Positions 23,066 to 41,689 of a stretch of DNA of 44,847 nucleotides are shown in pieces. The notes beneath the pieces are model-generated. The model did not search any database. It was not told where the DNA came from and saw only the letters and a list, made by a program, of their open reading frames with translations. Position 1 is the stretch's first letter, and the number at the start of each line of letters is the position of its first letter. The DNA lies in contig JACQBP010000045.1 in NCBI GenBank assembly GCA_016194445.1, positions 1 through 44,847 on the forward strand, read 5' to 3'. The DNA is from Candidatus Liptonbacteria bacterium. Its GTDB lineage: Bacteria > Patescibacteriota > Minisyncoccia > UBA6257 > 2-01-FULL-56-20. Made by a program: the position numbers and the translations under genes.

Positions 23066-23195
23066 GTAAAACTTTTACTTTCCGAAACCCCGCAGCCGGC
23101 TAGCTTGGTGTCGCCTTAGGCGACTCGTCGAGCGAGGACAGGATTATCCGCCGCTGGAGCGGATAATCCGAGGTTGAGGAAAGAAAAAGTTTTAC
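23066..23195 (+). repeat. Dispersed structured element family B
   Basis: Closing stem, GCTTGGT bulge, GTCGCC-TTA-GGCGAC hairpin, GC-closed CGCTGGA loop; near-identical to 36960-37095. Confidence 0.85.
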
Positions 23196-23202
23196 GCTCA
23201 AC

Positions 23203-23514
23203 CTAAATCTTGGTTATTTCTAACTCCGTATACGGTTGCCGATGCCCCTTCTTTTTTCTATATCTAGTCTTCGAGTGATACCGAAAAATGATTTTCTTTT
23301 TATCCCGCCCCTGATTTAAAACCTTCGCCTCCACTTTTTCTCCCGAAAGATAGGGGGTTCCCACTTCCACCCTATCGCCATCCGCTTTAAGTAAAACTTT
23401 ATCAAAAATAAGAGCGCCGCCAGTTTCAGCTTTTAGTCTTTCCACTTTTAACTTGTCTCCAACGGAAACTTTGTACTGCTTTCCGCCTGTTTCAATTACA
23501 GAAAAATTTTTCAT
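23203..23514 (-). CDS. rplU: 50S ribosomal protein L21
   Basis: VIETGGKQYKV, GTPY, KKGHRQPYT. Confidence 0.97.
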   Translation of the reverse strand: MKNFSVIETGGKQYKVSVGDKLKVERLKAETGGALIFDKVLLKADGDRVEVGTPYLSGEKVEAKVLNQGRDKKKIIFRYHSKTRYRKKKGHRQPYTELEITKI

Positions 23515-23545
23515 AGGTATTTCTTATTCTTCTTTTTACCCCCTA

Positions 23546-23690
23546 AGCGAAACTTTTATTTTGAAAGAGCTCGCGGAGACCGTAAAAGCTTGGTCCCCGT
23601 CGTAACGGGGTTTTACGGTCGAGCGCGCAGGCGGGCTTTGGCCGCTGGAGCCAAAGAACCGCCGGTCTTTCAAAACAAAAGTTGAGCGCT
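23546..23690 (+). repeat. Dispersed structured element family B (stems replaced, loops conserved)
   Basis: GACCGTAAAA-GCTTGGT-hairpin-TTTTACGGTC; TTTGGC-CGCTGGA-GCCAAA. Confidence 0.8.
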
Positions 23691-24039
23691 AATTCACCGA
23701 TATAATAGCCGCAAAGTAAATAAAAATCAAGATGCTCAAAAAGAGGGTAAAAGCGGAAGCTAATTTAGCCAAAAACTTATCTCTAAGCTCCAACTCATAA
23801 GCAATCAGAAAATTAACCATAACGACTAGGATCCCAAAAAGCCCCACCTTCGCCAAGTCCCAAGCGTAACCCACTTGGTTGATGCCGGAGATATTGCTGA
23901 AATGAATGATGAGCGGCAAAGATATAGTCCTTAAAGCCAAATACGCCCACAACCACCCGCCCAAAACAAAAACCAAACTGACCACAAAACTTAAGTTATT
24001 AAATTTCGAACTAAAAATTTTCCGGAATGTTTGATTCAT
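23689..24039 (-). CDS. Small membrane protein (3 TM)
   Basis: PLIIHFS...GI loop between TM helices; follows mrdA. Confidence 0.75.
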   Translation of the reverse strand: MNQTFRKIFSSKFNNLSFVVSLVFVLGGWLWAYLALRTISLPLIIHFSNISGINQVGYAWDLAKVGLFGILVVMVNFLIAYELELRDKFLAKLASAFTLFLSILIFIYFAAIISVN

Positions 24040-25960
24040 AATCGTTGATGTTTTTATTCTCCTGATTAACTTTCGTCATTCTATTCAAATAATACCAATC
24101 TAAAACATCTTTCGCAATCGGCACCGCGTTTAAACTCCCTTCTTTAGAGTTTTCAACCAAAACTAGAATGCTGATCTCTGGATTTTGAGCGGGCGCGTAA
24201 CCCACAAAAAAAGCGTTTTCTTGGCTGTTATTCCTTATCTGAGCGCTGCCAGTTTTAGCGGCCACCTTAAAAGGCAAATCGTGAAGCGCGTAAGCGGTTC
24301 CGAGTGGGGAAGTGACCGCCCTTTCCATTCCTTTTTGAACTTCTTTGATGACGGAAGTGCCAACCGCCGACAGATCTTTAACCGCTTTCGGTTGATGAAA
24401 ACCATTCACCAAAAAAGTTTGATACACCTCTCCCCCATTCGCCACCGCGCCGATGTAGCTCAAAAGCTGGAGTGGGGTCACTAAAAGATCGCCCTGCCCA
24501 ATCGCAACATTATAAGTGTCACCCAAAAGCCAAGGTTTGCCCGTCTTCTTTTCCCGACTTAATGCATCCGGCAGAGAACCGGCCGCCTCCCCAAACAAAT
24601 CGATGCCGTTCGGAATCCCCAAACCAAACTTCTGCCACCACTCCTTGAGTTTGTTGATGCCCAAACCTTTGACTCCCTCCTGTCCCGCCGCCGCCCGGGG
24701 CGGCGACCCTCCGCCTACGATGTAAAAATAAACATTACTCGATTGAGCCAGCGCCGAAGCTAAGTTCACCTGGCCCTGATAACGCCAATCCAAAAATCGA
24801 GTCGGTTCGTCCGGGTTGTATGGATTTGGGACATCCAAATATCCCGGCGAAAAAATTTCCCTTTCGGGAGTAATCACCCCTTCGCTAAGCGCCGCGATGG
24901 CATGCAACGGCTTGATCGTCGAACCCGGCGAGTAAAGACCGCCAATGGCTCGGTTAAAAAGAGGTTTGAGGGGCGCACTAAGCAACTCGGCTACCGCCTT
25001 ACTCGTCGAGGCAGAATTAAAAATACCGTTATCGTAACTCGGCAAGTTAACCATGGCGAGTACCCGACCGTCTCTTGGATCAATCGCCAGACCCACTCCC
25101 ACCTTCCGACCCAAACTCTCTAACCCTTGCTTTAAGCGACTATAAAAGTAAGTTTGAAAATCCGCGTCGATCGTTAAGTGCAACTCTTGGCCAATTTCTG
25201 ATTCCTTGCCTTTTTTCTGATCGAGGACATTGCCTCTCGCGTCTCGAACCTTAACCGACGTGCCCGGTTTTCCTCGAAGTTTGTTTTCATAAAAAGCTTC
25301 GAGGCCGGCTTTGCCCACAAAATCCCGGCCGCCTAAATTCGGATACCGTTTTAAATCTTCCGCGCTGGCGATCCCAGTGTAACCCACGACCGATGCAAAC
25401 ACCGGTCCCTGCGGGTAGTGGCGATCAAAGCCGCGGCTGACTAAAATTACGGTGGAATCCAAACTTTCCAGTTTTATCAGTTGGCTTTGACTTAAATCAG
25501 CGTTCAAAAGAATCGTATCGCTAAAAACCCCCTGATTATTCTCTTCAATTAAATGCCAAAAATCGTCCGCGCTAATTCCTAAAACCTCCCCGGCCACCTT
25601 AAGAGTCTGATTCTGCAAATCGCTCCTCCGAAGAAATTCTCTCACGTTGAGAAAAGCCAAGAAAACCGGCCGATTTTCGGCCAAAACCTTACCTCGCGCG
25701 TCATAGATAATTCCCCTCGGAGCCGGCAACCTCTGGACTTCGCTTAAGTTAGCCAACGCTCGAGCCTTATAAAAACTGCTCTCGAAAGCCAGTAAGATAA
25801 TTTTCACCGTCGCCCCCAAACCCACTAAAAAAACTATCACCCCGAGATAAAATAAAATTTGCTGATTGAGCGGCGCTTCCGTCACCCCCAAGTCTCGCAC
25901 CCAGTCATCTCCCAAAGACTCTTCTAAAGCCAAATCTCTTTTTTTTCTGAACTTAAACAT
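24011..25960 (-). CDS. mrdA: Penicillin-binding protein 2
   Basis: APRGIIYD, PGSTIK (SxxK), SSN, KTG; in the mreBCD operon. Confidence 0.93.
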   Translation of the reverse strand: MFKFRKKRDLALEESLGDDWVRDLGVTEAPLNQQILFYLGVIVFLVGLGATVKIILLAFESSFYKARALANLSEVQRLPAPRGIIYDARGKVLAENRPVFLAFLNVREFLRRSDLQNQTLKVAGEVLGISADDFWHLIEENNQGVFSDTILLNADLSQSQLIKLESLDSTVILVSRGFDRHYPQGPVFASVVGYTGIASAEDLKRYPNLGGRDFVGKAGLEAFYENKLRGKPGTSVKVRDARGNVLDQKKGKESEIGQELHLTIDADFQTYFYSRLKQGLESLGRKVGVGLAIDPRDGRVLAMVNLPSYDNGIFNSASTSKAVAELLSAPLKPLFNRAIGGLYSPGSTIKPLHAIAALSEGVITPEREIFSPGYLDVPNPYNPDEPTRFLDWRYQGQVNLASALAQSSNVYFYIVGGGSPPRAAAGQEGVKGLGINKLKEWWQKFGLGIPNGIDLFGEAAGSLPDALSREKKTGKPWLLGDTYNVAIGQGDLLVTPLQLLSYIGAVANGGEVYQTFLVNGFHQPKAVKDLSAVGTSVIKEVQKGMERAVTSPLGTAYALHDLPFKVAAKTGSAQIRNNSQENAFFVGYAPAQNPEISILVLVENSKEGSLNAVPIAKDVLDWYYLNRMTKVNQENKNINDYESNIPENF

Positions 25961-26416
25961 CTAAGTTGAGGTGAAAAGATTATTTAAAAATAAAAAAATG
26001 ATCGCTCCAAAAAGTAAGTCCGCTCCCAAAATCTGCAAGAGTATTCTCAAATTCACCGTCAAAAAAGAAAAGTCAACTAAAGCGTAAAAAATCAGTACCC
26101 CGAAAAAAACGGCCAAAAAAACACCGAGCCACAATTTACCTCGGAAAAAGCGGTGGCCGAAAAATGAAAGCGCGGGTAGAACCGCTAAAGCCATCATTTC
26201 TAAACTTAAAGCGGGTTGCCAATTCAACCATAAAATTGCGACCAAAATAAGAAACGTGAGTTTCCAAAAATCGACAAAAAAGGCCAAGACTAAAAGCGCC
26301 ACCAAAATAAAATCCGGATGTAAATTTGAGGCGCTAAAAAATGCTCCCAAAAAAATAGCTAGGAGCAAAACCAAGGAAGCGAAAAACAGATTCACTCTCT
26401 CTTGTTCAGGGTTCAT
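25961..26416 (-). CDS. mreD: MreD-like membrane protein (start MNPEQ, ATGA overlap with mreC)
   Basis: Hydrophobic 151 aa with PDFIL motif, between mreC and mrdA. Confidence 0.7.
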   Translation of the reverse strand: MNPEQERVNLFFASLVLLLAIFLGAFFSASNLHPDFILVALLVLAFFVDFWKLTFLILVAILWLNWQPALSLEMMALAVLPALSFFGHRFFRGKLWLGVFLAVFFGVLIFYALVDFSFLTVNLRILLQILGADLLFGAIIFLFLNNLFTST

Positions 26417-27114
26417 TTCTTTAAAACCATAACGGCCTTGATCTGGCTCCAGTCGTAATTCATTTTGAGATCGGCTTCCTGAAACAACTGATCTTTCGAC
26501 CAACCGATATTCCAAACTTCACCGAGCGGCAATCCATAAGGAAATCGCTCATCTGTACTGTAAACCACCTCCCCTTCTTGGATCTTCGCCTCTTTTTTAA
26601 TTAAGGTGAGTCTCGGCTCTCCGCCACCGATCACTAAAGCTTCCACTCCGGGCTTGCCGATTTTGGCTTCGGACTTCCACTCTGGATCAAAAATCGTTGT
26701 GACCAAACTCGTCCGCTCTTTCACTTCTTTTATCCTACCAAGTAAAATCTCGTCATTTTTGAGTAAACCGCTCTTTTCCTTCACAAAGAGCGTAACCGCC
26801 TGATTCACTCCTATCCCCTGTCCACGCCCTGCATTCAGTAAAATCTCGTTTTTAAGATTAAAAGGATAGCGGCTGTAAACTAGAGCCGGCGTAAAATCAG
26901 TTGTGATTTTTGGCAACTGCTCTTTAAGATCTCCCAATTTAATCAGTTCTGCTTTGAGCGACTCATTTTCGAGCGTGAGGCGCTCCCGTTCCGTTTCTTC
27001 TCCCGGTTCTTTCGCCAAAAAACTTCTTAAGTCCCAACCCAATTTAGGGTTGAATAAAATTAAAACCAGTAGGCCAAAAATCAAAATCCCCAAAAAAACA
27101 TTTTTCTTCCTCAT
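26413..27114 (-). CDS. mreC: Rod shape-determining protein MreC
   Basis: TM, L..ENE.LK coiled coil, FPYGLPLG. Confidence 0.9.
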   Translation of the reverse strand: MRKKNVFLGILIFGLLVLILFNPKLGWDLRSFLAKEPGEETERERLTLENESLKAELIKLGDLKEQLPKITTDFTPALVYSRYPFNLKNEILLNAGRGQGIGVNQAVTLFVKEKSGLLKNDEILLGRIKEVKERTSLVTTIFDPEWKSEAKIGKPGVEALVIGGGEPRLTLIKKEAKIQEGEVVYSTDERFPYGLPLGEVWNIGWSKDQLFQEADLKMNYDWSQIKAVMVLKK

Positions 27115-27132
27115 ATCATAAAAATATTGAGA

Positions 27133-28185
27133 CTAAGGTGATAAAAAATTAATCGTCATCGGCTTCAAAGGATTGTCGAGCAACTGCCGATGGCCATCAA
27201 AATTATCCACCAGTTTCCCTAAACCGCGCGCCACGCAAGTTAAAGGTTCATCCACCACTTCCGTGGCGACCGATGTTTCCCGCTCTATTAAGGCATCGAT
27301 CCCTCTTAAATTGGCTCCGCCCCCGCAAAGATAAATGCCTTGTTTTAACATATCTCCCACCAGCTCCGGAGGAGTGAGCTCAATCACTTCTTTGATTGTT
27401 TCGATCATTGATCGCACTGACTTGTTGATGGCGGCTCGGACTTGAGTGTCTTTAATTAAAACCTCCCTCGGTAAGCCCGTCGCTAAATCCCGGCCCCGTA
27501 AACTGACCTCCAATTTCTCACTATGCGGAATAGCCGATCCAGCTGCCACCTTGGCAAACTCAGCGGTGGGTTCGCCGATCGCGAGCTTGAATTCATCTCT
27601 TACAAAATTAACTATATCTTCATTAAACTTATCTCCCGCTACCTTGAGAGTCCGGGAAACGACCGTCCCGCCCATTGAAATCACGGCGATATCGGTGGTG
27701 CCGCCGCCAATATCCACGATTAAGCTGGCCGTGGGCAGGTGAATCGGTAAATTCGCTCCCAAGGCTGCCGCTACCGGCGATTCAACTAAGTAAACTTTCG
27801 AACAACCGGCGTTTAAAACTGCGTCCTCGACAGATTTTCTCTCCACTTCCGTCAAATTGTCAGGTATAGATAAAATTCCCCTCCGATAACTGAAAAATGA
27901 CTTCTCGCTAATCTGTCTCAAAAATTGGCGGATGACTTCCTGGGCCATTTCAAAATCAGAAATCACGCCATTTTTAAGTGGTCGGACCACGCTGATATGA
28001 GCGGGCGTTCGTCCAAACATTTTCTTGGCCTCTTCGCCCACGGCTAAAATCTTGTTTGTCTTATTGTTAAACGCCACGACCGTCGGTTCGTTCACTAACA
28101 CTCCTCGACCGCGCAAATAGATCAGGGAATTGGCCGTTCCCAAATCAATCCCGACGTCTTTAAAAAAAGTACCGAAGAATGCCAT
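27133..28185 (-). CDS. mreB: Actin-like MreB
   Basis: GIDLGTAN, RPLKNGVI, VDIGGGTT, TPPEL, PLTCVARG. Confidence 0.96.
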   Translation of the reverse strand: MAFFGTFFKDVGIDLGTANSLIYLRGRGVLVNEPTVVAFNNKTNKILAVGEEAKKMFGRTPAHISVVRPLKNGVISDFEMAQEVIRQFLRQISEKSFFSYRRGILSIPDNLTEVERKSVEDAVLNAGCSKVYLVESPVAAALGANLPIHLPTASLIVDIGGGTTDIAVISMGGTVVSRTLKVAGDKFNEDIVNFVRDEFKLAIGEPTAEFAKVAAGSAIPHSEKLEVSLRGRDLATGLPREVLIKDTQVRAAINKSVRSMIETIKEVIELTPPELVGDMLKQGIYLCGGGANLRGIDALIERETSVATEVVDEPLTCVARGLGKLVDNFDGHRQLLDNPLKPMTINFLSP

Positions 28186-28190
28186 AATGT

Positions 28191-29426
28191 TTAACCTTTA
28201 TTTTTCAGTAATCTCAAAACCCCTTTCACGTCCGCCAATTTAACGTTTTTCTCCGATCTTATTTTGACCTCAACCTTCTTACCAGTTTTTTTACTCAAAA
28301 CTAGTCGCCAAGGAATCCCAATCAAATCCGCCTCCGCGAACTTCTCGCCCGCCGAGATTTTCCTGTCATCATAGAGTACTTCAATCTCCGCCTTCTGTAA
28401 ATCTCCGTAGAGCTTTCTCCCTAAGGCCTTTTCAAGTTCTAAAAGGTGAACTTGAAAAGGCGCCACTGTTTTTGGCCAAACTATTCCCCGCTCATCGTGA
28501 AAAACCTCGGCGATGGTCCCCGCCAATCGGCCTGGGCCAATCCCATAACTTCCCATAATCACCGGCTTCAGCTCCTCATTCTGATCTTTAAACATCAAAT
28601 TAAAATCTGTCGAAAACCGAGCTCCTAAGGAGAAAATATTGCCCACCTCTACCGCCTTCACTTCTTCTAAATCCCCTCGCTTCAAGCCCAAATCCGCCAA
28701 AATTTCCTCCCTTAAAACTTCTTTATTCACAGCTAAACCTTTCTTCCGATCCAAGTAAATCGTATCTTCGCCGACCGGTGCAATTGTTTGAAACTCGTGA
28801 GAATATTTTGAAAAAGTGCCACCGGAAGCGAAGGTCAAAAAAGTCTTATCCCCCAAGCCCACCCGGCTAAAAACCTTTAAATAGGCTCCCTTAGCCTTCT
28901 CGTAAAACGCCCTATGTTGAACTTCAGAATCCGTAAATGAGTACAAATCCTTCATCAAAAACTCGCGCGTTCTTAAAATCCCACTCTTCGCTCGAATTTC
29001 ATTTCGAAATTTAGTTTGAAATTGATAAACGAAAATCGGCAAATCTCGGTACGAGGAGATATAACTCTTCATCAGGTACGTGAGAGGCTCTTCGTGAGTG
29101 GCTGCGAGTCCGAGTTCCGAATCATTTTTCAACTTCGTCTTAAACCAAACGTCCAAAACTTTATCCTCCCAACGGCCACTCTTCTGCCAAACGGTTTTGT
29201 CCTGAAGGGTTGAGAGTAAAAGTTCTTGCCCTCCAATCGCATTCATCTCCTCCCGAATAATCTGCTCAATTTTTTTCAAAACCCGAAACCCGAGCGGCAA
29301 ATATTCGTACACGCCCGCCATCACTTTATGCACAAAACCAGCCCTGACTAAAAACCGCATCCCTTGGGCTTCCTCGTCCGCCGGAAACGTGCGGAAAGAT
29401 TTAGTAAATAATTCTGACTGTTTCAT
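28191..29426 (-). CDS. proS: Proline-tRNA ligase, short form without INS editing domain
   Basis: THEE, YRDLP, KFRNE.RAKSG.LR.REFLMKD, EVGNIF.LG, MGSYGIG; 411 aa. Confidence 0.95.
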   Translation of the reverse strand: MKQSELFTKSFRTFPADEEAQGMRFLVRAGFVHKVMAGVYEYLPLGFRVLKKIEQIIREEMNAIGGQELLLSTLQDKTVWQKSGRWEDKVLDVWFKTKLKNDSELGLAATHEEPLTYLMKSYISSYRDLPIFVYQFQTKFRNEIRAKSGILRTREFLMKDLYSFTDSEVQHRAFYEKAKGAYLKVFSRVGLGDKTFLTFASGGTFSKYSHEFQTIAPVGEDTIYLDRKKGLAVNKEVLREEILADLGLKRGDLEEVKAVEVGNIFSLGARFSTDFNLMFKDQNEELKPVIMGSYGIGPGRLAGTIAEVFHDERGIVWPKTVAPFQVHLLELEKALGRKLYGDLQKAEIEVLYDDRKISAGEKFAEADLIGIPWRLVLSKKTGKKVEVKIRSEKNVKLADVKGVLRLLKNKG

Positions 29427-29546
29427 CTTTATTTAAAAAGAATAGCACAGGAAAGATGACCTCGCAAAAATTGACAATTTCCATTAAAACCTATAGATTA
29501 AAAAATGGTAACGGAACCGGCGACAACAGTAAAGGAGGACTCACGA

Positions 29547-29768
29547 ATGCACAATCCAACCAGCTTCCCCTACGAGGTCCAGGTCAGAGATATTGAAGAC
29601 CCAGAAACTCCGTTCCGCATCAAAATCGATCGAGACCCTCAAACCCTCAAGCTGGACTCGAAACTCGTAGCGGAAAACGGCAACGGCTACACAGTCATCA
29701 GCTTCGCTGCTGATGGTAATCCAATTATCGACCTCACCGACTGTGCCACGGTCTTACCACCGGCCTGA
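29547..29768 (+). CDS. Hypothetical small protein (start MHNPT)
   Basis: AAGGAGG SD; TTGACA-17-TAGATT promoter at 29471; hairpin GAAGCCCCG/CGGGGCTTC at 29791-29822. Confidence 0.6.
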   Translation: MHNPTSFPYEVQVRDIEDPETPFRIKIDRDPQTLKLDSKLVAENGNGYTVISFAADGNPIIDLTDCATVLPPA

Positions 29769-29828
29769 AAACGGCTGGAGCCAAAGCATTGAAGCCCCGT
29801 TCGTTTTTGCGCGCGGGGCTTCCAACTT

Positions 29829-30902
29829 TTAAAAAAACTTAGCTAAAAAGAAAATCACGAGTCCAAAAGCGCTGAAAACCGCCGAGATAATCCAAAACCG
29901 CATGGTCACCTGTGATTCCGGCCAACCTAAGGCCTCAAAATGGTGATGAATGGGGGTGGAGAGAAAAATTTTCTTCCCTCTCGTTTTTTTGCTGATCATC
30001 TGGGCTATCACCGACAAAGATTCGGCCACCAAAATAATTCCGAAAAAAGGCAAGAGTAGGACGGTATTGGTGAGCATCGCGATCACCCCAATTGTAATCC
30101 CAAGTGACATCGAACCGGTATCCCCCATAAAAAATCTGGCCGGATATATGTTAAACCATAAAAATGCGAGTAGCGCTCCAATTGTCACTCCGCCAAAAGC
30201 CGCTAAATCGTACCGCCCTAAAACAAAAGCCACGGTGGTCAAGGCCACAAAGGCAAAAAGCGACACGCCGCCCAAAAGTCCGTCTAAACCATCGGTTTCG
30301 TTGGCCGAAAAGGCGCTCGCGACAATAATAAAAATAAAAATCGGAATGTTGAGCCACCCCACTTCAATCGTTCCCAAAAACGGCACATAAATCACGGTCC
30401 AATCGAGTTTAAAATAAAACCACCACGCCCCAATTAAAGCCGCCACCGTGTAAACCAAAAGTTTATATCGAATTTTGAGTCCTCCTCCGTTCGAACCAAT
30501 CTTTAAAACACCAAGCCAGTCATCTAGGAGTCCCAAAATCGCGGCGATAATTAAAGCCGCGAGCGGCAAATAAGTTTGAGCTCGGTCAATAAAATTTAAA
30601 TAACCCCAAAAACCGTCAAAAAAGTAATTCAAAATCCCAAAGACAATGGCAAGTAAGAGTACCGTTGACCAAATAATCACCCCGCCCGCCGTTGGCGTGC
30701 CTTCTTTTTTCTGATGGAATTTATGAAAAACTGGCGCCTCCGATCTGGTCCGGATCTGTTTACGCATTTGATATCTTTTTATAAGCCGATACCAAAAAGG
30801 CGTGGCAAGAAGCGCCACTAAAAAAGCTATCCCCGTCAAAATAATGACGCGAATAGCTTGACCAGGAATCGATTCCGATAAAACTCCTTGAGAAAAAATC
30901 AT
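29829..30902 (-). CDS. mraY: Phospho-N-acetylmuramoyl-pentapeptide transferase
   Basis: KEGTPTAGG, DD, NETDGLDGL, FMGDTGS, PIHHHFE; start at MIFSQ. Confidence 0.95.
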   Translation of the reverse strand: MIFSQGVLSESIPGQAIRVIILTGIAFLVALLATPFWYRLIKRYQMRKQIRTRSEAPVFHKFHQKKEGTPTAGGVIIWSTVLLLAIVFGILNYFFDGFWGYLNFIDRAQTYLPLAALIIAAILGLLDDWLGVLKIGSNGGGLKIRYKLLVYTVAALIGAWWFYFKLDWTVIYVPFLGTIEVGWLNIPIFIFIIVASAFSANETDGLDGLLGGVSLFAFVALTTVAFVLGRYDLAAFGGVTIGALLAFLWFNIYPARFFMGDTGSMSLGITIGVIAMLTNTVLLLPFFGIILVAESLSVIAQMISKKTRGKKIFLSTPIHHHFEALGWPESQVTMRFWIISAVFSAFGLVIFFLAKFF

Positions 30903-30915
30903 TCCGTCGTGTAAG

Positions 30916-32548: not shown

Positions 32549-32562
32549 TTTACTTTCTTTAA

Positions 32563-32704
32563 AAATGAAGAGGGTTAAGTTTTGAAACCCCCGCAGCCGC
32601 TTTGGCATGGTCCGCTCGTTCTCTTCGAGCGGCAAAGCGGTGAGGATAAGCGAATGAGCCGCTGGGCGAAAGAAGCGGGTTGAAAAATTTAATCCTCTTC
32701 ATTT
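32563..32704 (+). repeat. Dispersed structured element family B (divergent), overlapping the scpA stop
   Basis: Closing stem AAATGAAGAGGG/CCTCTTCATTT; CCGCTTTG-GCATGGT-hairpin-CAAAGCGG; GCCGCTGG loop. Confidence 0.75.
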
Positions 32705-33433
32705 CCTTCTCACTATTATATCAGAAAAATAAGTCTCTTGCTCGAGGTAAATCAACTGCTCTCTCGCCAAATGCAAAATCGCCAAAAAAATAATGATGAT
32801 CTCGGCCTTAGTTTTCGACTCGGCCATTTGCATAAAACTATCCTCCCCCTTGCCTTGCAGCCGGAGAATGATTTCCTGAATTTTTTCCTCGATAGAAACC
32901 ACTCTTTCCCTCACCACCTTCTCTTCAACTTCTAGGTCCCTAAAACCTTCAACAATATTGCTCAAAGCCTGGAGCAAAATTTTCTGATTCAACTTATCCC
33001 CAGGATAAAAAACCCCCGCCCAACTACCCGCTCCCGCCGCCCCCAAACCTCCTTCCAAAAAATAGGGCCGGCTAAATTCGTTGTTTTTCTCCCGCCACCG
33101 AAGTTGGAGCATCTTCATCGCCGGTTTGAGTTCTCTGTACAACTTGAGTCTTCTCTCCAAATCCTTAATGTCCTCCTCTTCTTCCTGCGATAATTCTAAC
33201 CGCGGCAAAAGCGATTTAGATTTTAAAAGTACTAACCGGCTCGCAACCACAATAAAATCAGCTAAAGTCGGCACCTCCACCTTTTCTAAACTGCGGATAT
33301 ATTTCAAAAAATCATCGGTCACGGCCGCCAAACTAATTTCCGACACCTCCATTTTTCGCTCCTCAATAAACTGAAGTAGCTTGTCCAAGGGGCCAGCAAA
33401 TTTTTCTAACCTTAATTCATACGTTGGATTCAT
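32699..33433 (-). CDS. scpA: SMC-Scp complex kleisin ScpA
   Basis: FAGPLDKLL, LKSKSLLP, FLAILHL, Q..YFSDI; start MNPTY. Confidence 0.93.
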   Translation of the reverse strand: MNPTYELRLEKFAGPLDKLLQFIEERKMEVSEISLAAVTDDFLKYIRSLEKVEVPTLADFIVVASRLVLLKSKSLLPRLELSQEEEEDIKDLERRLKLYRELKPAMKMLQLRWREKNNEFSRPYFLEGGLGAAGAGSWAGVFYPGDKLNQKILLQALSNIVEGFRDLEVEEKVVRERVVSIEEKIQEIILRLQGKGEDSFMQMAESKTKAEIIIIFLAILHLAREQLIYLEQETYFSDIIVRRK

Positions 33434-33438
33434 AAAAA

Positions 33439-34728: not shown

Positions 34729-34845
34729 CTATGGAGAAAGTCTAGTTTAATTAAAGTCAGAATACCACGAAAAACTTCGCTCGTAAAACGAAAAACCCTC
34801 GCCTGTAAAAGACGAGGGGTGATCTGAAAATGCAACGGGGCTCAA

Positions 34846-34974
34846 TCAGCGAGCCACCGGGTGGTGAATAAAGGCGTACACGCCGACAACTATTAACCCG
34901 ATGAGTACGGCCCACATCCACCATGTCCCCTTGGCCGACTGGTCAGTCTGACCATCATCCAATTCCGCTGCCAT
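34846..34974 (-). CDS. 42-aa single-pass membrane microprotein
   Basis: MAAELDDGQTDQSAKGTWWMWAVLIGLIVVGVYAFIHHPVAR; GGGAGG SD; terminator at ~34791-34820. Confidence 0.65.
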   Translation of the reverse strand: MAAELDDGQTDQSAKGTWWMWAVLIGLIVVGVYAFIHHPVAR

Positions 34975-35027
34975 ACTTCCCTCCCGTTACTCGGCGCTGT
35001 TTTAAAAAAACGTTTGCGGAAAATGGA

Positions 35028-35153
35028 TTACCAGCTTGGATGGTACATCCAAACCAACACACCAGAGATGGCTACAAGACAAACTACCAGAAACCACAAC
35101 GGCATCCCGTCTTTTCCCTGCAAAGAGACTCCATCTCCCTCCCGTGTTTCCAT
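35028..35153 (-). CDS. 41-aa single-pass membrane microprotein
   Basis: METREGDGVSLQGKDGMPLWFLVVCLVAISGVLVWMYHPSW; GGAGG SD; TTGACG-17-TATTTT promoter upstream. Confidence 0.65.
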   Translation of the reverse strand: METREGDGVSLQGKDGMPLWFLVVCLVAISGVLVWMYHPSW

Positions 35154-35247
35154 AGAACCCTCCGCTCAAAACTGCCGTTAAATTTCCCTTGGATACCAAT
35201 TTTAAAATACTAGAAAATCCAATCGGCGTCAATTAATCCCCCCTGCT

Positions 35248-35282
35248 TGATACTTAATACTGAATACTTAATACTATATACT
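35248..35282 (+). repeat. Heptamer tandem repeat (nnATACT)x5 abutting the dnaX start
   Basis: tgatact taatact gaatact taatact atatact then ATG. Confidence 0.8.
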
Positions 35283-36392
35283 ATGTCGCTTGCCTTATAT
35301 AGAAAATACCGCCCTAAAAAACTCGAAGATCTGATCGGCCAAGAAACCACCGTTCAGATCCTCAAAAACGCGGCCAAATCTGACCGCCTCGGCCATGCTT
35401 ATCTTTTCTACGGACCAAGAGGCACCGGCAAAACTTCGACCGCGAGATTAATCGCCAAGCTCTTAAACTGCGAAAAACGCTTGAGCGACGAAAAATTCCG
35501 CCTTCTTGGCGAACCCTGTGGCGAATGTTCGCACTGCAAAGAAATCGATATGAACTTCTCTTTCGATGTGGTTGAGATCGACGCCGCCTCGAATCGCGGC
35601 ATCGATGAAATCCGCAACCTCAAAGAAAACATTCAAACCTCGCCGGTCAAAGGTGACTACAAAGTTTACATCATTGATGAAGTCCACATGTTAACCGGCC
35701 CGGCTTGGAACGCTCTCCTTAAAACCCTAGAAGAACCTCCCGCGCACGCCGTCTTTGTTTTAGCCACCACTGAATACGAAAAAATCCCAGCCACCGTGAG
35801 CTCCCGCGCTCAGCGCTTCGTTTTCAAAAAAGCCTCCAAGGTTAAAATCATTGAAAAAATAAAAATGATCGCGGGCCTAGAAAAAATCGCGATCGAAGAC
35901 GCTGCCCTCGAACTTATCGCCGCTATCGGCGACGGCTCCTTCCGCGACGCGGAATCCCTCTTAGATCAGTTAAGTTCTTCGGGCGAAAAAATCACTCTCG
36001 AAGTCGTCGAGCAACTCACCGGCCGCACGGGATTAAAAAAAGTGAGTGAACTCTCCGAACTGATTTTGAAAAAAGACGCGGCGGGCGCTTTAAGTTTCCT
36101 GGCCGAAATGAGCGAAGAAGGCGTCAACCTCACCCAACTCGCCAAAGACCTCATCCACTATCTTCGTAAAATCCTCTCTTTAAAAACCAACCCCGGCCTC
36201 GAAAGATTTTTCTCCTCTGAACTGACTAAAGAAGAGATTGAACACTTAAAAAAATTATCTGCTCTCGCCGACACCGAACGTCAAATCAAATTTTTAAAAT
36301 CCCTTATCCTCGCCTACACCGAAATCCGCTATTCTCCTTTCCCAATCGTCCCCCTTGAAGTGGCTATTATCGAAAACCTCCAAACCCCTTAA
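35283..36392 (+). CDS. dnaX: DNA polymerase III subunit gamma/tau (short, 369 aa)
   Basis: ALYRKYRP, GPRGTGKTS, EIDAASNRG, IIDEVHML, NALLKTLEEPP. Confidence 0.96.
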   Translation: MSLALYRKYRPKKLEDLIGQETTVQILKNAAKSDRLGHAYLFYGPRGTGKTSTARLIAKLLNCEKRLSDEKFRLLGEPCGECSHCKEIDMNFSFDVVEIDAASNRGIDEIRNLKENIQTSPVKGDYKVYIIDEVHMLTGPAWNALLKTLEEPPAHAVFVLATTEYEKIPATVSSRAQRFVFKKASKVKIIEKIKMIAGLEKIAIEDAALELIAAIGDGSFRDAESLLDQLSSSGEKITLEVVEQLTGRTGLKKVSELSELILKKDAAGALSFLAEMSEEGVNLTQLAKDLIHYLRKILSLKTNPGLERFFSSELTKEEIEHLKKLSALADTERQIKFLKSLILAYTEIRYSPFPIVPLEVAIIENLQTP

Positions 36393-36448
36393 AAGAACTG
36401 CGGGCCTACTCCGTAGAATAAGCCCGCAAAACAGTTTGTGCTCTTGAA

Positions 36449-36838
36449 TCATACCGAAGCGGCCATTTGCATCGCCCGACCCCTCCGCTTCCTCGGGCTC
36501 ACCTTCTTCGATCCCGTTTGCGAAACCTGCCCGACCGGCCCTTCAATCTCCCGAATCCAAGCTTCTCGCAAAGAAGCGCATAAGGCGAGATTGTAAGGGA
36601 TCGTGGAGTCAAAACCGTGCGATACGGCGCTCTGGAATCGAGCGTTCCCCGAGGTTTCGGCTGGCCAGAGCCAACCCAGACCGTTGGCAAAATCACCCTT
36701 CAACTGACCCAAGATGCAACTGTCCCGGTCATGCATTCTCAAACGCCGAAGGCTGATCCGCTTTTTCCAGTCAGGCATTCTTTGACTGAGAAGCTTGGCC
36801 CCTCGAGCCACATTCGCTTCCAACTCTTTCTGATCCAA
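36449..36838 (-). CDS. Hypothetical protein (probable TTG start, MDQKE)
   Basis: GGAGG SD 6 nt before TTG; VARGA.LL....P.W...I......CILGQL pattern; bidirectional hairpin at 36400-36427. Confidence 0.6.
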   Translation of the reverse strand: MDQKELEANVARGAKLLSQRMPDWKKRISLRRLRMHDRDSCILGQLKGDFANGLGWLWPAETSGNARFQSAVSHGFDSTIPYNLALCASLREAWIREIEGPVGQVSQTGSKKVSPRKRRGRAMQMAASV

Positions 36839-36959
36839 CTGCCACCTCCCTCTAAAAAAAGGTTGAACTCTGCCTCGCGCTAGCAAAAATATAACACAAG
36901 CCCATTCCAAAAATCAAATTGTCCCCGCCACCACTCCTTTTTCTCATCTGGAGCAGACG

Positions 36960-37095
36960 TCTCGTAAAATTTTGGTTTCCGAAACCCCGCAGCCGGCGAG
37001 CTTGGTGTCGCCTTAGGCGACTCGCCGAGCGAGGACAGAATTATTCGCCGCTGGAGCGGATAATTCGAGGTTGAGGAAAGTAAAATTTTAAGAGA
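36960..37095 (+). repeat. Dispersed structured element family B
   Basis: Near-identical to 23066-23195 with compensatory or wobble changes. Confidence 0.85.
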
Positions 37096-37106
37096 CCATA
37101 TAAATC

Positions 37107-37556
37107 TCACCGAGTGACCTTAATCGTCTTCCCCAACTCTGCCGCCGGCGCCGCAACCGTAATCTCGGTGGTCGACGCGTTTTTTACGACCGTATAACCC
37201 GTGTCGTAATCGGTTACGCTCGTGTAGCGCGCGCTCGAAGTGGCTGGATCAAAAGGCAGATTGTTCATATAGTTCGGCACCAGACACGGCGCGATGTCAT
37301 AGTTCCCGGCCCCCACGGCCATTCTTTTAGTCGTCGTCGGAATATCACCATTCGCACAGGTAAAAATGCCCGTCCTCGTGTCCGCCACATTTTGCCGAAT
37401 GGCGTTTAGGATCGCATTTAAGTGCAAACTTCGTTCTGAATTTCGGGATGAGGCAAACTGCCCCACCGGATTCAACTTCACCACCCACACGCCCAAAATA
37501 ATCGCCAAAATGGCAATCGATATCAAAAGCTCCATCATCGTCAAACCCCTCTTCAT
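37107..37556 (-). CDS. Type IV pilin-like protein
   Basis: MKRG|LTMMELL prepilin motif, hydrophobic helix, two Cys, P.DP motif. Confidence 0.9.
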   Translation of the reverse strand: MKRGLTMMELLISIAILAIILGVWVVKLNPVGQFASSRNSERSLHLNAILNAIRQNVADTRTGIFTCANGDIPTTTKRMAVGAGNYDIAPCLVPNYMNNLPFDPATSSARYTSVTDYDTGYTVVKNASTTEITVAAPAAELGKTIKVTR

Positions 37557-37572
37557 ATAAGTTAATTATACG

Positions 37573-37604
37573 CTAAAAACTACAACCTATCACCTACAAC
37601 CTAG
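37573..37604 (+). repeat. Heptamer repeat (CTAnnAC-type)
   Basis: ctaaaaa ctacaac ctatcac ctacaac ctag. Confidence 0.7.
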
Positions 37605-37605
37605 T

Positions 37606-39036
37606 TTATTGGACCTCCTCCCACGATATCAAACTATACTGATCACTGCTTAAAGGAAAACTTGGCGGCGGCCCATAAAGCAAGTAAGAATCGTAAATAT
37701 AATCTCGTTGCTGATAACCGTTCGAGGCCGAATAGTTAAAGGCGGGTCTAAGAGCGCTCCCTAACATCCCATACGAAGTAAAAAGCGCGCGACTAGAATT
37801 TGAACCGCAAAAGGCGTATGAATAACGCCCCACCCGCCCATTTTGTGTCATCATCGCGGCATCAACCCTTAAATCATCCTCGCTTACGAGTCCCACGTTA
37901 ATATTATTTTGAGCCAGGAGCGCTATCACGTCACTGCCATCGTAGTTAGTGTAGAGCACGTCGCTATTCACCGTAATACTCGACCGAGTCGCCGGGTTAT
38001 CCGGAAACCGGCCCGAAGCAATGGTTAATCTTTTATTCTTAATCTGACCTCGCACCCATAGATTATCTTCCACGAAAATATTCCCGTTCGCCGGAATCGT
38101 CCCCGTCGCAAATATAGTTTCGGTTTGAATGCTCCAGGTTCCCCATCCCGACTGACCCGAATTGCTGCAACCGCCTGGCGGCGCAGTGAGCGCCGTCACT
38201 TTATAAATCGTAAAAATCCCGCTGGTCGCTAACTGCAAATCGTATCCTAAAACCGTGGAACTGCCAAAATAAGTTCCACTCGCTTGCGCGGCAGTTTTGA
38301 TCAAGGCCAAATCTTGAGTTATTTTTCCAAAATCCACCGCCGGCACCGGAAACTGTCGGCCCGCCATAAAAACATCCGGCCGACTCGGCACGGCCGCCGG
38401 CGGCAATGGATCGGTGGGTGCCGAGTGGGTGTGCACCCCAAATTCATTAGCGCCACTGTGATCCGGATCATCAAAAGTGGTTTGAGCGCTCGTGACCAGG
38501 TTATGAGCCAAACCGTCAAACCGCAAGCCCGAGTTGGAATGAACCAAACCAAACACCTCCGCGGCCGAACCAAATCGAACGTAATCATTTAAAACCCAAG
38601 CGAATTTCGCAAAAGAAGGTATGCCCATCCTCACCTTAATTACCTTCTCCACTGAGCTGTCGGCTAAAGCCTTGCCGGTGCTTTTTATATTCACAATCGT
38701 GGAACCATTTGTCGGCGCCGTAATATCGAGTACAAACTGGCCGATCAAATTGCCGCTTTTATCGTAATAATTGTGAGTGTAAGGCCCGGCGCTACCTGTG
38801 CCATCCTGATAATCCTTCGGCGCGTGCGCTAAGTGCCAGCGATAGTACTCAATCCCCGACTCCGCGATGGTGAAGGCCAAAGATTTATTGAAAGCCCTCA
38901 CGGAAAGTTTAAGGAAGGAAAGAGCGGCAAACGTAAAACCGGAAATTAAAATGACCACGATCGCCGCAAAAAAAACCATCTGCAGCGACAACTGTCCCCC
39001 TCTTTTTCTAATTTGTATTATTCGTATCATTCGCAT
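37606..39036 (-). CDS. PilX-like minor pilin with large C-terminal domain
   Basis: RGG|QLSLQ N-terminus without Glu5, AESGIEY helix, terminal SWEE. Confidence 0.8.
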   Translation of the reverse strand: MRMIRIIQIRKRGGQLSLQMVFFAAIVVILISGFTFAALSFLKLSVRAFNKSLAFTIAESGIEYYRWHLAHAPKDYQDGTGSAGPYTHNYYDKSGNLIGQFVLDITAPTNGSTIVNIKSTGKALADSSVEKVIKVRMGIPSFAKFAWVLNDYVRFGSAAEVFGLVHSNSGLRFDGLAHNLVTSAQTTFDDPDHSGANEFGVHTHSAPTDPLPPAAVPSRPDVFMAGRQFPVPAVDFGKITQDLALIKTAAQASGTYFGSSTVLGYDLQLATSGIFTIYKVTALTAPPGGCSNSGQSGWGTWSIQTETIFATGTIPANGNIFVEDNLWVRGQIKNKRLTIASGRFPDNPATRSSITVNSDVLYTNYDGSDVIALLAQNNINVGLVSEDDLRVDAAMMTQNGRVGRYSYAFCGSNSSRALFTSYGMLGSALRPAFNYSASNGYQQRDYIYDSYLLYGPPPSFPLSSDQYSLISWEEVQ

Positions 39037-39060
39037 GCATTAGTATAGTGGTATCACAAT

Positions 39061-39681
39061 TTAATTGCTTCTTAGGTTCCTGATGGTGATGGTATCTGAA
39101 AATAAAAGTGGGTTCGGCGCTTTGCCAGGATTAGTGTCCACGTGAACCGAAACCTTCACCACTCTTATTTTAGAAACATCCACCGTTGAAGTCATAGCCG
39201 TTTGCGTCCCGGTGTAACTGTCGTCAAAATAATCAAAAAAATTAGTGCCGGTCGCGTTCACCGCGTTGTAAATTACATTTTTGACGACTTCGCTTGAGGT
39301 TACATATTGAAACGTCCCCGTCGGTTTAATTACCCCTTTTTCAACCGTGCTTGTCACCAACGTGTACCTGACTCTTTCAAAAATTCCATCCTGATCAATA
39401 TCGCTGAAAAAAACCAGCGAACTGGTCGACGCCGATTGGATTGGATAAGCCCCGTTTGAAGCCGGACCTGCCGACCTGATATCAGTTACCATCACCTGAA
39501 AAGTTTGATCCAGGGTACTTCTTGATTGAAGTTTTTGATTCACAAAGTTCTCAATATTTGAAACGTTACTCGTTAAACTCGAAACGACCAAGACCAAAAC
39601 CGCCGAGATAGCCGCAAAAATTATCACCTCTACGAGCGAAAACCCATTCTTTGACTTTTTGTTATGTATTACCTTATCCAT
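39061..39681 (-). CDS. PilW-like minor pilin
   Basis: KNG|FSLVEV, DIRSA, C-terminal IRN. Confidence 0.85.
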   Translation of the reverse strand: MDKVIHNKKSKNGFSLVEVIIFAAISAVLVLVVSSLTSNVSNIENFVNQKLQSRSTLDQTFQVMVTDIRSAGPASNGAYPIQSASTSSLVFFSDIDQDGIFERVRYTLVTSTVEKGVIKPTGTFQYVTSSEVVKNVIYNAVNATGTNFFDYFDDSYTGTQTAMTSTVDVSKIRVVKVSVHVDTNPGKAPNPLLFSDTITIRNLRSN

Positions 39682-39704
39682 AATTCGGTTTTGTTTTATT
39701 CCTT

Positions 39705-39735
39705 CTACAACCTAAAACCTATCACCTAAAACCTG
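39705..39735 (+). repeat. Heptamer repeat (CTAnnAC-type)
   Basis: ctacaac ctaaaac ctatcac ctaaaac ctg. Confidence 0.7.
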
Positions 39736-39738
39736 TTC

Positions 39739-41499
39739 TTACTGCGGCTGCAATAAAATTTCTGCCTGTGTCCAATTGCCCACTACCGAAACCGAACTGG
39801 TCGCCGGATTGTATCCCGTCGCGCTAACTGTAATATCGTAGTCACCAGAGGCTAAGTTGTTGAATAAAGCTTGGGAGGGTGGCACGCACACCCCTTTAAA
39901 TTCAACACTCACATCATCGAGTCGCGGCGTGTAATTCTCATCCGCGGTTGAAAAATAAACTTTATATCGCAAGTAGCGATTACCAGAGAGTCCACTCCAC
40001 ACATTCGAACTCGAGGCAACGTAGTAGCTCGTAGCGGTGCCATCGGGTCCCACAAAATTCCAAGTCGCGTTGTCGTTGTTTGAAGCTAACTGAAACTTCA
40101 GACTGTCCGAGCCGGTTTGCGAAGGCTGAACTTGAGGATTCCAATTCAAACCGTAAAAACTGGCCGTTGAAGAACCAACATCAAAAGTATTCGAAACCAG
40201 CCAGCTCGTGGTCGAAGTGCTGTAAGTCGACGAAGCGTTCGCTAAAAGTTTTATGGTTCCGGCCGGATTCCCCGTGTCTAAACCGCCATCTTGGGCGGCA
40301 TACTGCCCCCCGGACCAATCCGTTTCTCTAAGAAAACTATGGCCAGTAATCGCGCTCGCTTGAAATCCAGATTTAGTTAAATTAACCGATGCTTCCAAAA
40401 CTCCATTCCCGTTCACACTATTTTTCACCGTTACTAAAAGCGACTTCGGCGCGGTCGGTTGAACCACAAACCTGAAATCGTAGGTGGAACTCGGATTCAC
40501 AATCATCGGCGAAAGCGGGACAGTTCCCAACAAATCATAACTGGCTTCATTCAATGGAAAAGAATAAGTGTCCCATTCAATATTGTTAAGGGACTTAGAA
40601 CTGCTCGATCCAGTGTTAGTGCTAGTTGTAAATTTTAAAACATCTGGGTTGGTACCAATCAGTCTCGTCCCGTTCATCGAAAAATGAATATTCGGGATTG
40701 CCTCACACCGGAGTCCCGAGGAGTCAACGTTGACTCGGCTTACCTTATCAATAGCAAAACTGATCGCGGTTACGGTTTGAGCCGCCACGGTGGCGTGCGG
40801 CTTGGTTGGATTCGGATTCCCCGCCGCTCCAATGGGATAAGTTTGATCCGAAGAGTAGCCGGCTTTACTCACGCTAATTTGATAACTTTGAGTGCTCGTG
40901 GGCACCCCCACTAGTTGCAACACGCCACTTGCGTTAGTCGCGTCGGTAAGATCAATCGTTGGCGTCACTGATGCGTTAACCACGTGCACATTCGCCGCGC
41001 TAACTGACGAACCAATCGCGTCAAAAACATTAATAAAAATCGAACCGTTGGTGCTCGCGCTCTCAAGATTCTTGGGCGCCACCGTGGTCGTAAAAACCAT
41101 CGGCACAAACTTTAAGCAAGTGAGGCAACTCACTTCGAGCTCCACTAATTTATAATCGGCCGGCGCGGTATCGTTCGGTGTGCCGCCCAAAGTCCCGTCA
41201 AACGGATCATCAATATTCCGGACCGTTGTCTTGACCGTAAAATTAACGTTATCAAACTTAATAACTTGAATTTGGGGAATTGCGCCCGCCGGCACTCCTC
41301 CTTGAGTCCCAACGCTGTCGTAAGTCATATTTCTCAAAATCTCGACTTGTCGGTTAAAAACCGACGTGGCTGCTCCTCTGATTTCTAAATTATTTACGGT
41401 GTCGAGAATTGAAAAATAAACTAAATAAATTCCGCCAAAAAGCATCACGATAATCGCGACGCTAATCACCACATCAATCAGGCTGAAGCCTTTTTTCAT
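39739..41499 (-). CDS. PilV-like minor pilin fused to carboxypeptidase-regulatory-like beta-sandwich domains
   Basis: KKG|FSLID (Asp at +5), E.LRN..Y, T.A.G...YQISVSKAGY repeats. Confidence 0.82.
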   Translation of the reverse strand: MKKGFSLIDVVISVAIIVMLFGGIYLVYFSILDTVNNLEIRGAATSVFNRQVEILRNMTYDSVGTQGGVPAGAIPQIQVIKFDNVNFTVKTTVRNIDDPFDGTLGGTPNDTAPADYKLVELEVSCLTCLKFVPMVFTTTVAPKNLESASTNGSIFINVFDAIGSSVSAANVHVVNASVTPTIDLTDATNASGVLQLVGVPTSTQSYQISVSKAGYSSDQTYPIGAAGNPNPTKPHATVAAQTVTAISFAIDKVSRVNVDSSGLRCEAIPNIHFSMNGTRLIGTNPDVLKFTTSTNTGSSSSKSLNNIEWDTYSFPLNEASYDLLGTVPLSPMIVNPSSTYDFRFVVQPTAPKSLLVTVKNSVNGNGVLEASVNLTKSGFQASAITGHSFLRETDWSGGQYAAQDGGLDTGNPAGTIKLLANASSTYSTSTTSWLVSNTFDVGSSTASFYGLNWNPQVQPSQTGSDSLKFQLASNNDNATWNFVGPDGTATSYYVASSSNVWSGLSGNRYLRYKVYFSTADENYTPRLDDVSVEFKGVCVPPSQALFNNLASGDYDITVSATGYNPATSSVSVVGNWTQAEILLQPQ

Positions 41500-41539
41500 A
41501 CCAATCTAAATTATACCATTCCGTAAACTCCTTCTCACC

Positions 41540-41689
41540 AAGTTCCAACTTGTGTTCAGGGGCAACTCTCGCAGGCTCTGCCAGCTTGGTTCCCGAATCT
41601 TCGAGGGGTAGCAGTGCCGAGAGGGTAGGGCGACTTTCGCCGCTGGAGCGAAAGAACGCCCGGTGCCGCTGAACACACGTCAGGAACTT
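41540..41689 (+). repeat. Dispersed structured element family B (stems replaced, loops conserved)
   Basis: TGTGTTCAG/CTGAACACA stem; GCTTGGT bulge; CTTTCGC-CGCTGGA-GCGAAAG. Confidence 0.8.

Follow-up and report, generated by a model that had tools for sequence, protein, structure and literature searches.

Introduction

ERIC/IRU elements of the Enterobacteriaceae are imperfect palindromes of about 130 bp, which form a single long hairpin and are conserved in sequence throughout. In REP, BIME and REPIN repeats, a hairpin of about 35 bp is conserved in sequence and goes with a cognate RAYT (Y1 HUH) gene, and these repeats may protect the 3' ends of mRNAs. Correia/NEMIS elements of Neisseria have conserved terminal inverted repeats and TA duplications, and the Rickettsia palindromic elements are inserted in frame into genes. 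The attC sites of integrons carry the boxes RYYYAAC ... GTTRRRY and stand in promoterless cassette arrays, and in chromosomal integrons their folding strand is reportedly kept on the leading-strand template. Here we describe a repeat found in a 44,847-nt stretch (the window) of a Candidatus Liptonbacteria genome (contig JACQBP010000045.1, positions 1 to 44,847, forward strand). The repeat forms a three-way junction whose stems differ from copy to copy and still pair, and whose loops are conserved across classes. It is one kind of non-coding interspersed repeat of about 135-150 bp, native to Patescibacteria and commonest in the class of the source genome, and it is a family without a catalogue entry and without a known enzyme or function. 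We give about an even chance to the reading that it is a structure-constrained interspersed DNA repeat without a transposase, which behaves like ERIC and REP.

Patescibacteria have genomes among the smallest and most compact of bacteria. The source genome (G000; 0.89 Mb, or 894 kb; 99% complete; 45% G+C) keeps at least 23 copies of this 140-bp non-coding fold, and no gene is encoded within the element.

A three-way junction with interchangeable stems and conserved loops

The fold is described on the reference copy, whose parts are listed below. The + strand of the repeat in the window is G-rich and is called the model strand; R1 is a covariance model built from four copies, and R2 is a broader model.

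23545..23688, + strand: reference copy with Type I flanks, with rplU (L21) and a 116-aa open reading frame (ORF) on either side, both on the - strand; R1 160.6 bits, E 7e-45; minimum free energy (MFE) -70.6 kcal/mol, z -5.98
23551..23568, + strand: 5' arm of the closing stem P1, paired with 23666-23683 in the MFE fold; 17 of 17 P1 pairs changed on both sides across 30 genomes
23666..23683, + strand: 3' arm of P1, from the MFE fold and covariation
23569..23628, + strand: P2 arm, with a conserved short helix, a GGA/GA internal loop, the variable stem P2a, a 7-nt bulge and the hairpin P2b
23588..23594, + strand: 7-nt 5' bulge GCTTGGT, the same in all window copies except 32563 (GCATGGT) and the divergent 12746 (GCAGGGT)
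23630..23663, + strand: P3 arm, with P3a, a G/AA internal loop, P3b and an apical loop; 11 of 12 pairs changed on both sides
23643..23649, + strand: apical loop CGCTGGA (family consensus CGCNGGA), from motif tabulation

From 5' to 3' the order is P1, P2, the GGA/GA loop, P2a, the GCUUGGU bulge, P2b, one junction A, P3a, the G/AA loop, P3b with its CGCNGGA cap, GG, and P1 again. P1 is long and mostly A+T-rich, and a tandem G.A mismatch often interrupts it. The P2 helix follows P1 directly (consensus GCUCUC/GAGCGC, with one position mismatched or bulged); its register is set by compensatory changes in the loci L033 and L034, and the same changes rule out a K-turn at the GGA/GA loop. P2a is a variable stem of 8-10 bp and P2b a variable hairpin, which at times carries an extra inserted hairpin. 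RNAalifold proposed that the bulge pairs with a conserved CCGAG, which was ruled out by bulge variants without compensation. The first-pass annotation, made from the letters of the window, had described a closing stem, an arm with a GC(T/A)TGGT bulge and an arm capped by CGCTGG(A). All three are present, except that the P3 arm of copy 32563 has decayed and is largely unpaired.

The stems differ in sequence and still pair. With a single copy taken per genome from 30 genomes, pairing reaches 96.2% of 1457 cells, compared with 59.5% after shuffling and 38-48% with the partner column slid. Changes on both sides are seen in 48 of 50 pairs, and none of the 500 shuffles reaches any of the measures. 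A further 31 copies, chosen independently among the class, the phylum and named metagenome-assembled genomes (MAGs), are 93.5% paired against 58.2%. The alignments were fitted to the model and carry some bias toward structure, which these margins far exceed. The earlier claims of interchangeable stems and of a structure under selection are therefore backed by covariation in two sets of copies. In the window, dinucleotide shuffles fold much worse than all five of the copies first reported, on either strand (z from -4.4 to -7.9); on the + strand z lies between -4.9 and -6.2, and 0 of 200 shuffles equal any of the five.

The unpaired nucleotides form a set which is conserved across genera, families and classes. 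It consists of the GGA/GA loop, the GCUUGGU bulge, the CGCNGGA loop, the GAA loop and the tandem G.A mismatches, and it is mostly purine-rich. The UGG in the bulge and in the loop might pair with the CCA ends of tRNAs, as the first-pass annotation speculated. The terminal stems are the least conserved part of the element, and the centre is the most conserved.

The catalogues gave no counterpart to this fold. Nothing in the whole window matches Rfam 15 at the gathering score; positions 23000-23750 give just 4 chance-level matches (E 0.9-7, far under gathering), and eight copies from other taxa give nothing at E<=1. The first-pass annotation would have been undone by a lack of covariation or loop conservation or by a match to a described family, and it stands on these points: covariation and loop conservation hold across genomes, and no Rfam family matches in the window or in the eight copies of other taxa. 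Rfam also offers no support for a tRNA, a T-box, a 5S rRNA or a known self-cleaving ribozyme. Besides, in the parts of the full-text literature open to the search, there was no description of such a repeat in Patescibacteria or the candidate phyla radiation (CPR).

Strand preference and orientation

A preference for the + strand had been proposed, and it turned out to hold in all five window copies, whose MFEs (copies 23064, 23545, 32563, 36960 and 41540) are -63.0, -70.6, -65.6, -61.9 and -74.4 kcal/mol on the + strand, and -61.5, -69.2, -52.3, -52.5 and -70.4 kcal/mol on the - strand. Of 109 copies overall, 94 fold better on the model strand than on its complement when RNA parameters are used (mean difference -6.4 kcal/mol), and 102 do so under DNA parameters. 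The composition of the model strand over these 109 copies is G 4850, C 3655, A 3810 and T 3338. Cells with G.U outnumber those with A.C in two counts (72 vs 37 and 48 vs 18). They make up 2-3% and 1-1.5% of the cells, respectively, compared with 6.4% G.U and 0% A.C in 30 parsed tRNAs of the source genome. As both are rare, the pairing is near strand-symmetric, as it would be in a DNA palindrome, and favours the model strand only modestly.

Most copies were expected to lie antisense to their neighbouring genes, and this is confirmed in the source genome, where 16 of the 23 copies have both neighbours on the opposite strand; of the rest, 3 are sense, and 4 are mixed or stand at contig ends. Seven other genomes contain 28 antisense, 12 sense and 24 mixed copies and 1 at an end. 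The gene calls in these counts, as in those of skew and stop codons below, are longest-ORF approximations. We read the GC skew within 10 kb of each copy in the orientation of the element. In the source genome, 22 of the 23 copies have a negative value, and the three sense copies are among them. Once the coding strand is approximately corrected for, the skew is below zero for 78 of 88 copies, which places the model strand of these copies on the C-rich strand; they include 13 of the 19 copies whose neighbours are encoded on the strand of the element. As the skew is negative also at sense and same-strand copies, replication direction predicts the orientation better than gene direction does. Under the usual skew convention, the model strand lies on the lagging strand, that is, on the leading-strand template.

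The first-pass suggestion of an antisense RNA fared less well and is unlikely for most copies. In antisense copies, the gap between the 5' end of the element and the next start codon, which is on the other strand, is just 8-50 nt, and there is no consistent + strand promoter. No promoter-like site was found on the + strand before copies 23064 and 23545, copy 36960 has one weak site (9/12) overlapping its start, and no terminator-like site was found. An intrinsic terminator was rejected on the last of these results, at the copies scanned.

Gain, loss and persistence at orthologous sites

We compared the source genome with six congeners (G001-G006), with one genome for each species. Site 41540 has no counterpart in all four alignable congeners (G003, G004, G005 and G006), and the gap there is short (14 nt in G004). 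Site 23546 (window 23515-23688) lacks the element in two congeners, where the gap is 25 nt (G004) and about 37 nt (G005). At the same site, three congeners (G001:C56, G003:C6 and G006:C50; loci L057, L056 and L055) carry another structured repeat, which is larger (about 210-250 nt), is built around a conserved core of its own and has the outer stem and flanks in common with Type I copies; G002 carries yet another palindrome. Site 36960 is empty in G001 and G002, and in G006 it is occupied by a copy of another subfamily, equally far from the pilin stop codon.

On the other hand, the copy downstream of murB is present in the same orientation in four species (G000, G002, G003 and G005). Its flanks and outermost stem are conserved, and every inner stem is different yet paired. 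For subfamily A, two sites of the source genome share 92% identity, and a copy on a non-orthologous contig of G003 shares 89-90% with them, where the flanking genes share 63-77%.

The retained murB copy, the empty sites and the near-identical paralogues together indicate that there are both old resident copies and recent movement. Gain and loss between congeneric species is thus supported at 41540, 23546 and 36960. The description of the element as mobile holds for the turnover at sites and does not extend to all copies, as the murB copy has stayed in place in four species.

Copies in the window and the source genome

The five copies of the first-pass annotation (23066, 23546, 32563, 36960 and 41540) are all recovered on the + strand with their flanking ORFs on the - strand, and R1 scores them at 160.6, 139.5, 55.5, 53.7 and 27.7 bits in descending order (E from 7e-45 to 9.5e-6). 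R1 finds seven copies in the window in total, namely these five and the two last entries below.

23064..23196, + strand: subfamily A copy; R1 55.5 bits, E 6.5e-14; 92% identity with copy 36960
36960..37093, + strand: subfamily A copy; R1 53.7 bits; stop codon of a pilin-like gene (- strand) 10-13 nt away
32563..32702, + strand: subfamily C copy in the gap between scpB and scpA; R1 27.7 bits, E 9.5e-6; P3 arm degenerate; scpA stop codon inside the base of P1
41540..41686, + strand: copy flanked by a 586-aa ORF and a T2SSF/PilC-like gene; R1 139.5 bits; site without a copy in four congeners
12746..12883, + strand: divergent copy, new; bulge GCAGGGT, shortened loop; R1 31.9 bits, E 5.8e-7; R2 42.9 bits
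17147..17287, + strand: weak divergent copy, new; R1 20 bits, E 0.0017; R2 29.6 bits, E 8.8e-5

A scan of the source genome with R1 gave 22 matches at E<=10. The window together with 16 further loci contains 23 matches at E<=1, which is the basis for at least 23 copies in the genome. BLAST alone shows a further copy of the 32563 subfamily (contig C37:22971-23076). When we searched the 894-kb genome for both exact motifs at the right spacing, seven true copies and two chance matches were found, one of the latter in a tRNA. Contigs of two DNA runs end inside copy 36960 (37055-37084), so copies of the element account for contig breaks such as this one. The contigs of four DNA runs over window positions 22500-42400 have no joints and no indels and are uninformative on polymorphism.

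Neighbouring genes and flanking sequences

The neighbours are unrelated core genes, such as rplU, a PBP2-type transpeptidase gene, scpA/scpB, a pilin gene, a PilC-like gene, murB and uppP, and in genomes with a single copy they include rpsJ, rpsP and ruvB. In these highly compact genomes, the copies lie in the few gaps that tolerate them, as a rule right at a stop codon whose gene is on the opposite strand. Among 86 copies examined, a convergent stop codon lies no more than 60 nt from the 3' base of the extended stem in 41; the stem overlaps or abuts it in 11 of these, and the distance is 1-3 nt in 3, 4-10 nt in 16 and larger in 11. At the 5' base, a same-sense stop codon lies up to 60 nt away in 6 copies, and never within 10 nt. 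Where the stem overlaps a gene end, its far arm is an inverted copy of that gene end. Same-sense copies come at the end of a transcription unit and shortly before a -35/-10 promoter.

One locus carries a direct duplicate of a gene end. The last 22 codons of uppP/BacA are directly duplicated after the element (G000:C37:44736-45050; L002:2237-2556, - strand), with about half of the residues identical as judged by eye. The upstream duplicate completes the gene, and the downstream one is a diverged remnant with its own stop codon.

As for the flanks, 24 of 109 copies have direct-repeat-like sequences (AAGCGRAG ... CGRAGCG) which are conserved between loci and can extend the helix on the model strand through tandem G.A mismatches, and 37 of 109 have inverted flanks that merely extend P1. 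A TTGAC box or TTATCCAC lies within about 40 nt after 26 of 109 copies.

Another short sequence, TTATCCACA, which we take to be the DnaA-box consensus, occurs 24 times in the source genome (about 7 expected) and in most cases precedes a -35-like TTGAC box by 10-25 nt. It also stands 4-5 nt past the ...CGAGCG flank of about 13-15 of 109 copies, from several genera and a Saccharibacteria-labelled MAG. Sites of this kind lie on the window's - strand at about 2014 and at G000:C28:9203, adjoining the murB copy. Two neighbouring ORFs were also recorded. A 153-aa ORF without a Pfam match (window 36449-36910, - strand) adjoins copy 36960 and is absent along with the element from the orthologous site of G001 and G002. 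A 791-aa ORF (window 17295-19670, - strand), with weak matches to type IV secretion coupling-protein/HerA-like ATPases, directly adjoins the weak copy 17147.

Distribution across bacteria

R1 matches were found in 34 of 61 genomes including the source genome, with 26 of 36 other members of its family and 7 of 24 genomes from other families of its order, and the number of matches in each carrier ranges from 1 to 29. With R2, the element was detected in 59 of 151 evenly drawn genomes of the class and in 10 of about 144 genomes from other classes of the phylum. The bulge-loop pattern over 401 genomes gave matches that are nearly all due to chance. A pattern search of genome_contigs gave 80 matches listed, of which 11 are true by R2 and the other 69 are chance. 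Among the matches listed, the contigs true by R2 are labelled Colwellbacteria, Patescibacteria group, Saccharibacteria (2), Omnitrophota/Omnitrophica (2), "Gammaproteobacteria" (1) and "bacterium" (3), where labels of MAGs can be wrong. None of the 77 pattern matches in viral_contigs is true by R2, and a viral origin was rejected on that count.

A further outer flank, with GGCCTCGCTCG... on the left and ...CACCNTGCCCGC on the right, encloses the element in G007 (loci L087, L090 and L092) and in the Omnitrophota-labelled loci L271 and L261. As this flank is common to them, the same composite is present in a relative of the source genome and in MAGs labelled as another phylum.

Search for a mobilising enzyme

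No transposase tracks the element across the genomes examined. Y1_Tnp (PF01797) is found in 16 of 61 relatives, and the carriage of the element is unlinked to it. There is no Y1_Tnp in the source genome (23 copies) or in G003, G005, G009 and G017, and these genomes carry 8-23 copies. The co-occurrence with a HUH/RAYT transposase, which the first-pass annotation had put up for testing, is contradicted by these copy-rich genomes; for the co-occurrence with a reverse transcriptase, the source genome provides two short matches only. It also has no match to TnpB (PF07282), rve or IS110, and there is no TnpB, IscB or TnpA ORF among the scanned neighbours.

The sole DDE_Tnp_1 element of the source genome (C15:47975-49299) is a G+C-rich, IS4/IS5-like insertion sequence with a 374-aa frame and 21-bp inverted ends unrelated to the repeat, and it was either acquired from outside or mis-binned. 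As Xer, the single tyrosine recombinase reaches 229-243 bits, and with the integron integrase model it reaches 118 bits, where the cut-off is 265. Nine stand-alone GIY-YIG nuclease genes (frames of 74-136 aa) were also found, including one at window 12316-12576 (- strand), 169 nt from copy 12746. With only one of the nine near a copy, these minigenes were ruled out as a partner encoded by the neighbours.

Interpretation and rival explanations

For the DNA repeat without a transposase, the following course may be proposed. The conserved surface on the folded, G-rich single strand would be a docking site for a trans-acting factor encoded elsewhere. Spread and upkeep of the stems could proceed through replication-linked hairpin events, such as intra-strand template switching, copy-choice, and recombination between copies or with imported DNA, and a dedicated transposase would have no part in the spread. 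Such template switching and recombination would explain why G.U pairs are scarce, why stems extend into the ends of genes and how a gene end came to be directly duplicated. A survivor effect might underlie the orientation bias, with copies being lost when their stabler strand lies on the lagging-strand template or in the mRNA of an operon. The host may benefit as well, for example from a barrier at mRNA 3' ends.

Several points weigh against the reading. The trans-acting factor is hypothetical, and the preferential loss of copies with the stabler strand on the lagging-strand template leans on what Trinh and Sinden reportedly described in 1991. The coding-strand correction of the skew is approximate, and 10 of 88 copies do not fit. 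The bulge change GCTTGTT coincides with the loop change CGCTAGA in 2 of 2 copies, which hints at a tertiary contact between the two, and folded RNAs typically show conserved purine-rich loops and tandem G.A mismatches on one strand, as seen here. The retention of the murB copy in four species speaks for selection at that site, an outcome not expected of a purely selfish repeat; it may instead be due to gene conversion by other copies. No fresh insertion with exact boundaries was seen and no family-wide target duplication was found, where the empty sites of congeners are too diverged for alignment and the target-duplication search gave the 24 of 109 direct-repeat-like and 37 of 109 inverted flanks.

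Some of these points would be expected from a genuine structured RNA, either a cis module in mRNAs (a 3' end, an intercistronic insulator, or a processing or protein-binding site) or a multi-copy small RNA gene, in which the bulge and the loop make a tertiary contact or bind a protein. We consider this possible and rather unlikely. It agrees with helices that covary around junction and loop nucleotides conserved across classes, with purine-rich loops and tandem G.A mismatches on the strand that is stabler in 94 of 109 copies, with the excess of G.U over A.C of about 2:1, with the joint change of bulge and loop, with the persistence of the murB copy, and with the same-sense copies that end transcription units just upstream of promoters. 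However, most copies are antisense to both neighbours in the source genome (16 of 23) and antisense copies outnumber sense ones elsewhere (28 vs 12). Given the gap of 8-50 nt to the next start codon and the lack of a consistent promoter, the favoured strand would seldom be transcribed. Besides, G.U is at about one third of its level in tRNAs, A.C mismatches occur, the copy number varies from 0 to about 29, and orthologous sites turn over. A self-sufficient folded RNA or single-stranded DNA, in which the bulge-loop contact builds an active or protein-recruiting core and which spreads through the phylum and into Omnitrophota by universal host machinery (replication, Xer, RNA processing), is improbable in our view. 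Its standing is comparable to that of HEARO and OLE before their partners were found, and if true, the element would be a transposase-less mobile element or a new ribozyme-like class.

Variable stems with conserved extrahelical bases also recall a folded single-stranded DNA substrate for recombination or transposition, like an integron attC site, the attP hairpin of CTX phage or an IS200/IS605 end, whose bulge and loop would be read by a Xer-type recombinase or a HUH nuclease. The position directly 3' of genes, the orientation that follows replication-associated skew (22 of 23, 78 of 88), the Watson-Crick-dominated pairing, the conserved direct-repeat-like flanks in 24 of 109 copies and the single Xer-like recombinase of the source genome would all suit such a substrate. 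We nevertheless regard it as a doubtful candidate. The source genome has no integron integrase (118 vs 265 bits) and no Y1/HUH gene, neither attC R/L boxes nor a dif-like site were seen, the flanking genes are core housekeeping genes and not cassettes, and 37 of 109 flanks merely extend the stem. By the skew convention, the favoured strand lies on the leading-strand template and not on the exposed lagging-strand template. An attC-like or CTX-like site is thus alike in several respects, and every membership test failed. An ordinary miniature inverted-repeat transposable element (MITE) that depends on a DDE transposase, or a REPIN mobilised by a RAYT, would explain a short, non-coding, palindromic, multi-copy and intergenic repeat that differs in presence between species. 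This explanation is already largely refuted and seems very improbable, for conservation is lowest in the terminal stems and highest in the centre, which is the reverse of a MITE or REPIN. There are no conserved terminal inverted repeats, P1 differs between subfamilies, no target duplication is family-wide, the inverted ends of the sole DDE element are unrelated, and Y1_Tnp is absent from the source genome and does not track the element.

A selfish element would show how repeats can persist and move with no enzyme dedicated to them, and a useful one would point to a new RNA- or DNA-level function at the ends of genes in a large uncultured part of the bacterial tree. In either case, the covariance model can be used as a marker for annotating thousands of MAGs.

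Comparison with known systems

Among the known systems, relationship to IS200/IS605-derived repeats (PATE) or to TnpB/IscB guide RNAs finds no PF01797 or PF07282 match in the source genome. Like the Correia and Rickettsia palindromic elements, the element is a small interspersed palindrome of compact genomes, which may be co-transcribed with its neighbours and can overlap gene ends, whereas neither of those two forms a covarying three-way junction whose loops are conserved. Integron attC sites share with it the priority of structure over sequence, the conserved extrahelical bases, the single functional strand and the place directly 3' of genes. They differ in that the element has no IntI, no R''/L'' or L'/R' boxes common to its copies and no cassette array, and stands beside housekeeping genes.

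REP sequences are likewise extragenic palindromes just after genes, with many copies and a structure that outweighs most of the sequence. In contrast to them, the conserved part is internal here and the outer stem is variable, and the Y1 gene is absent from the source genome and several other carriers. The likeness to ERIC/IRU is one of behaviour only: both are intergenic, often co-transcribed DNA without a known transposase, whose copy number varies by species and whose copies are partly orthologous and partly gained or lost. Unlike ERIC, the element described here forms a three-way junction with free stems, conserves only its loops and junction, ranges across a phylum and has an orientation bias.

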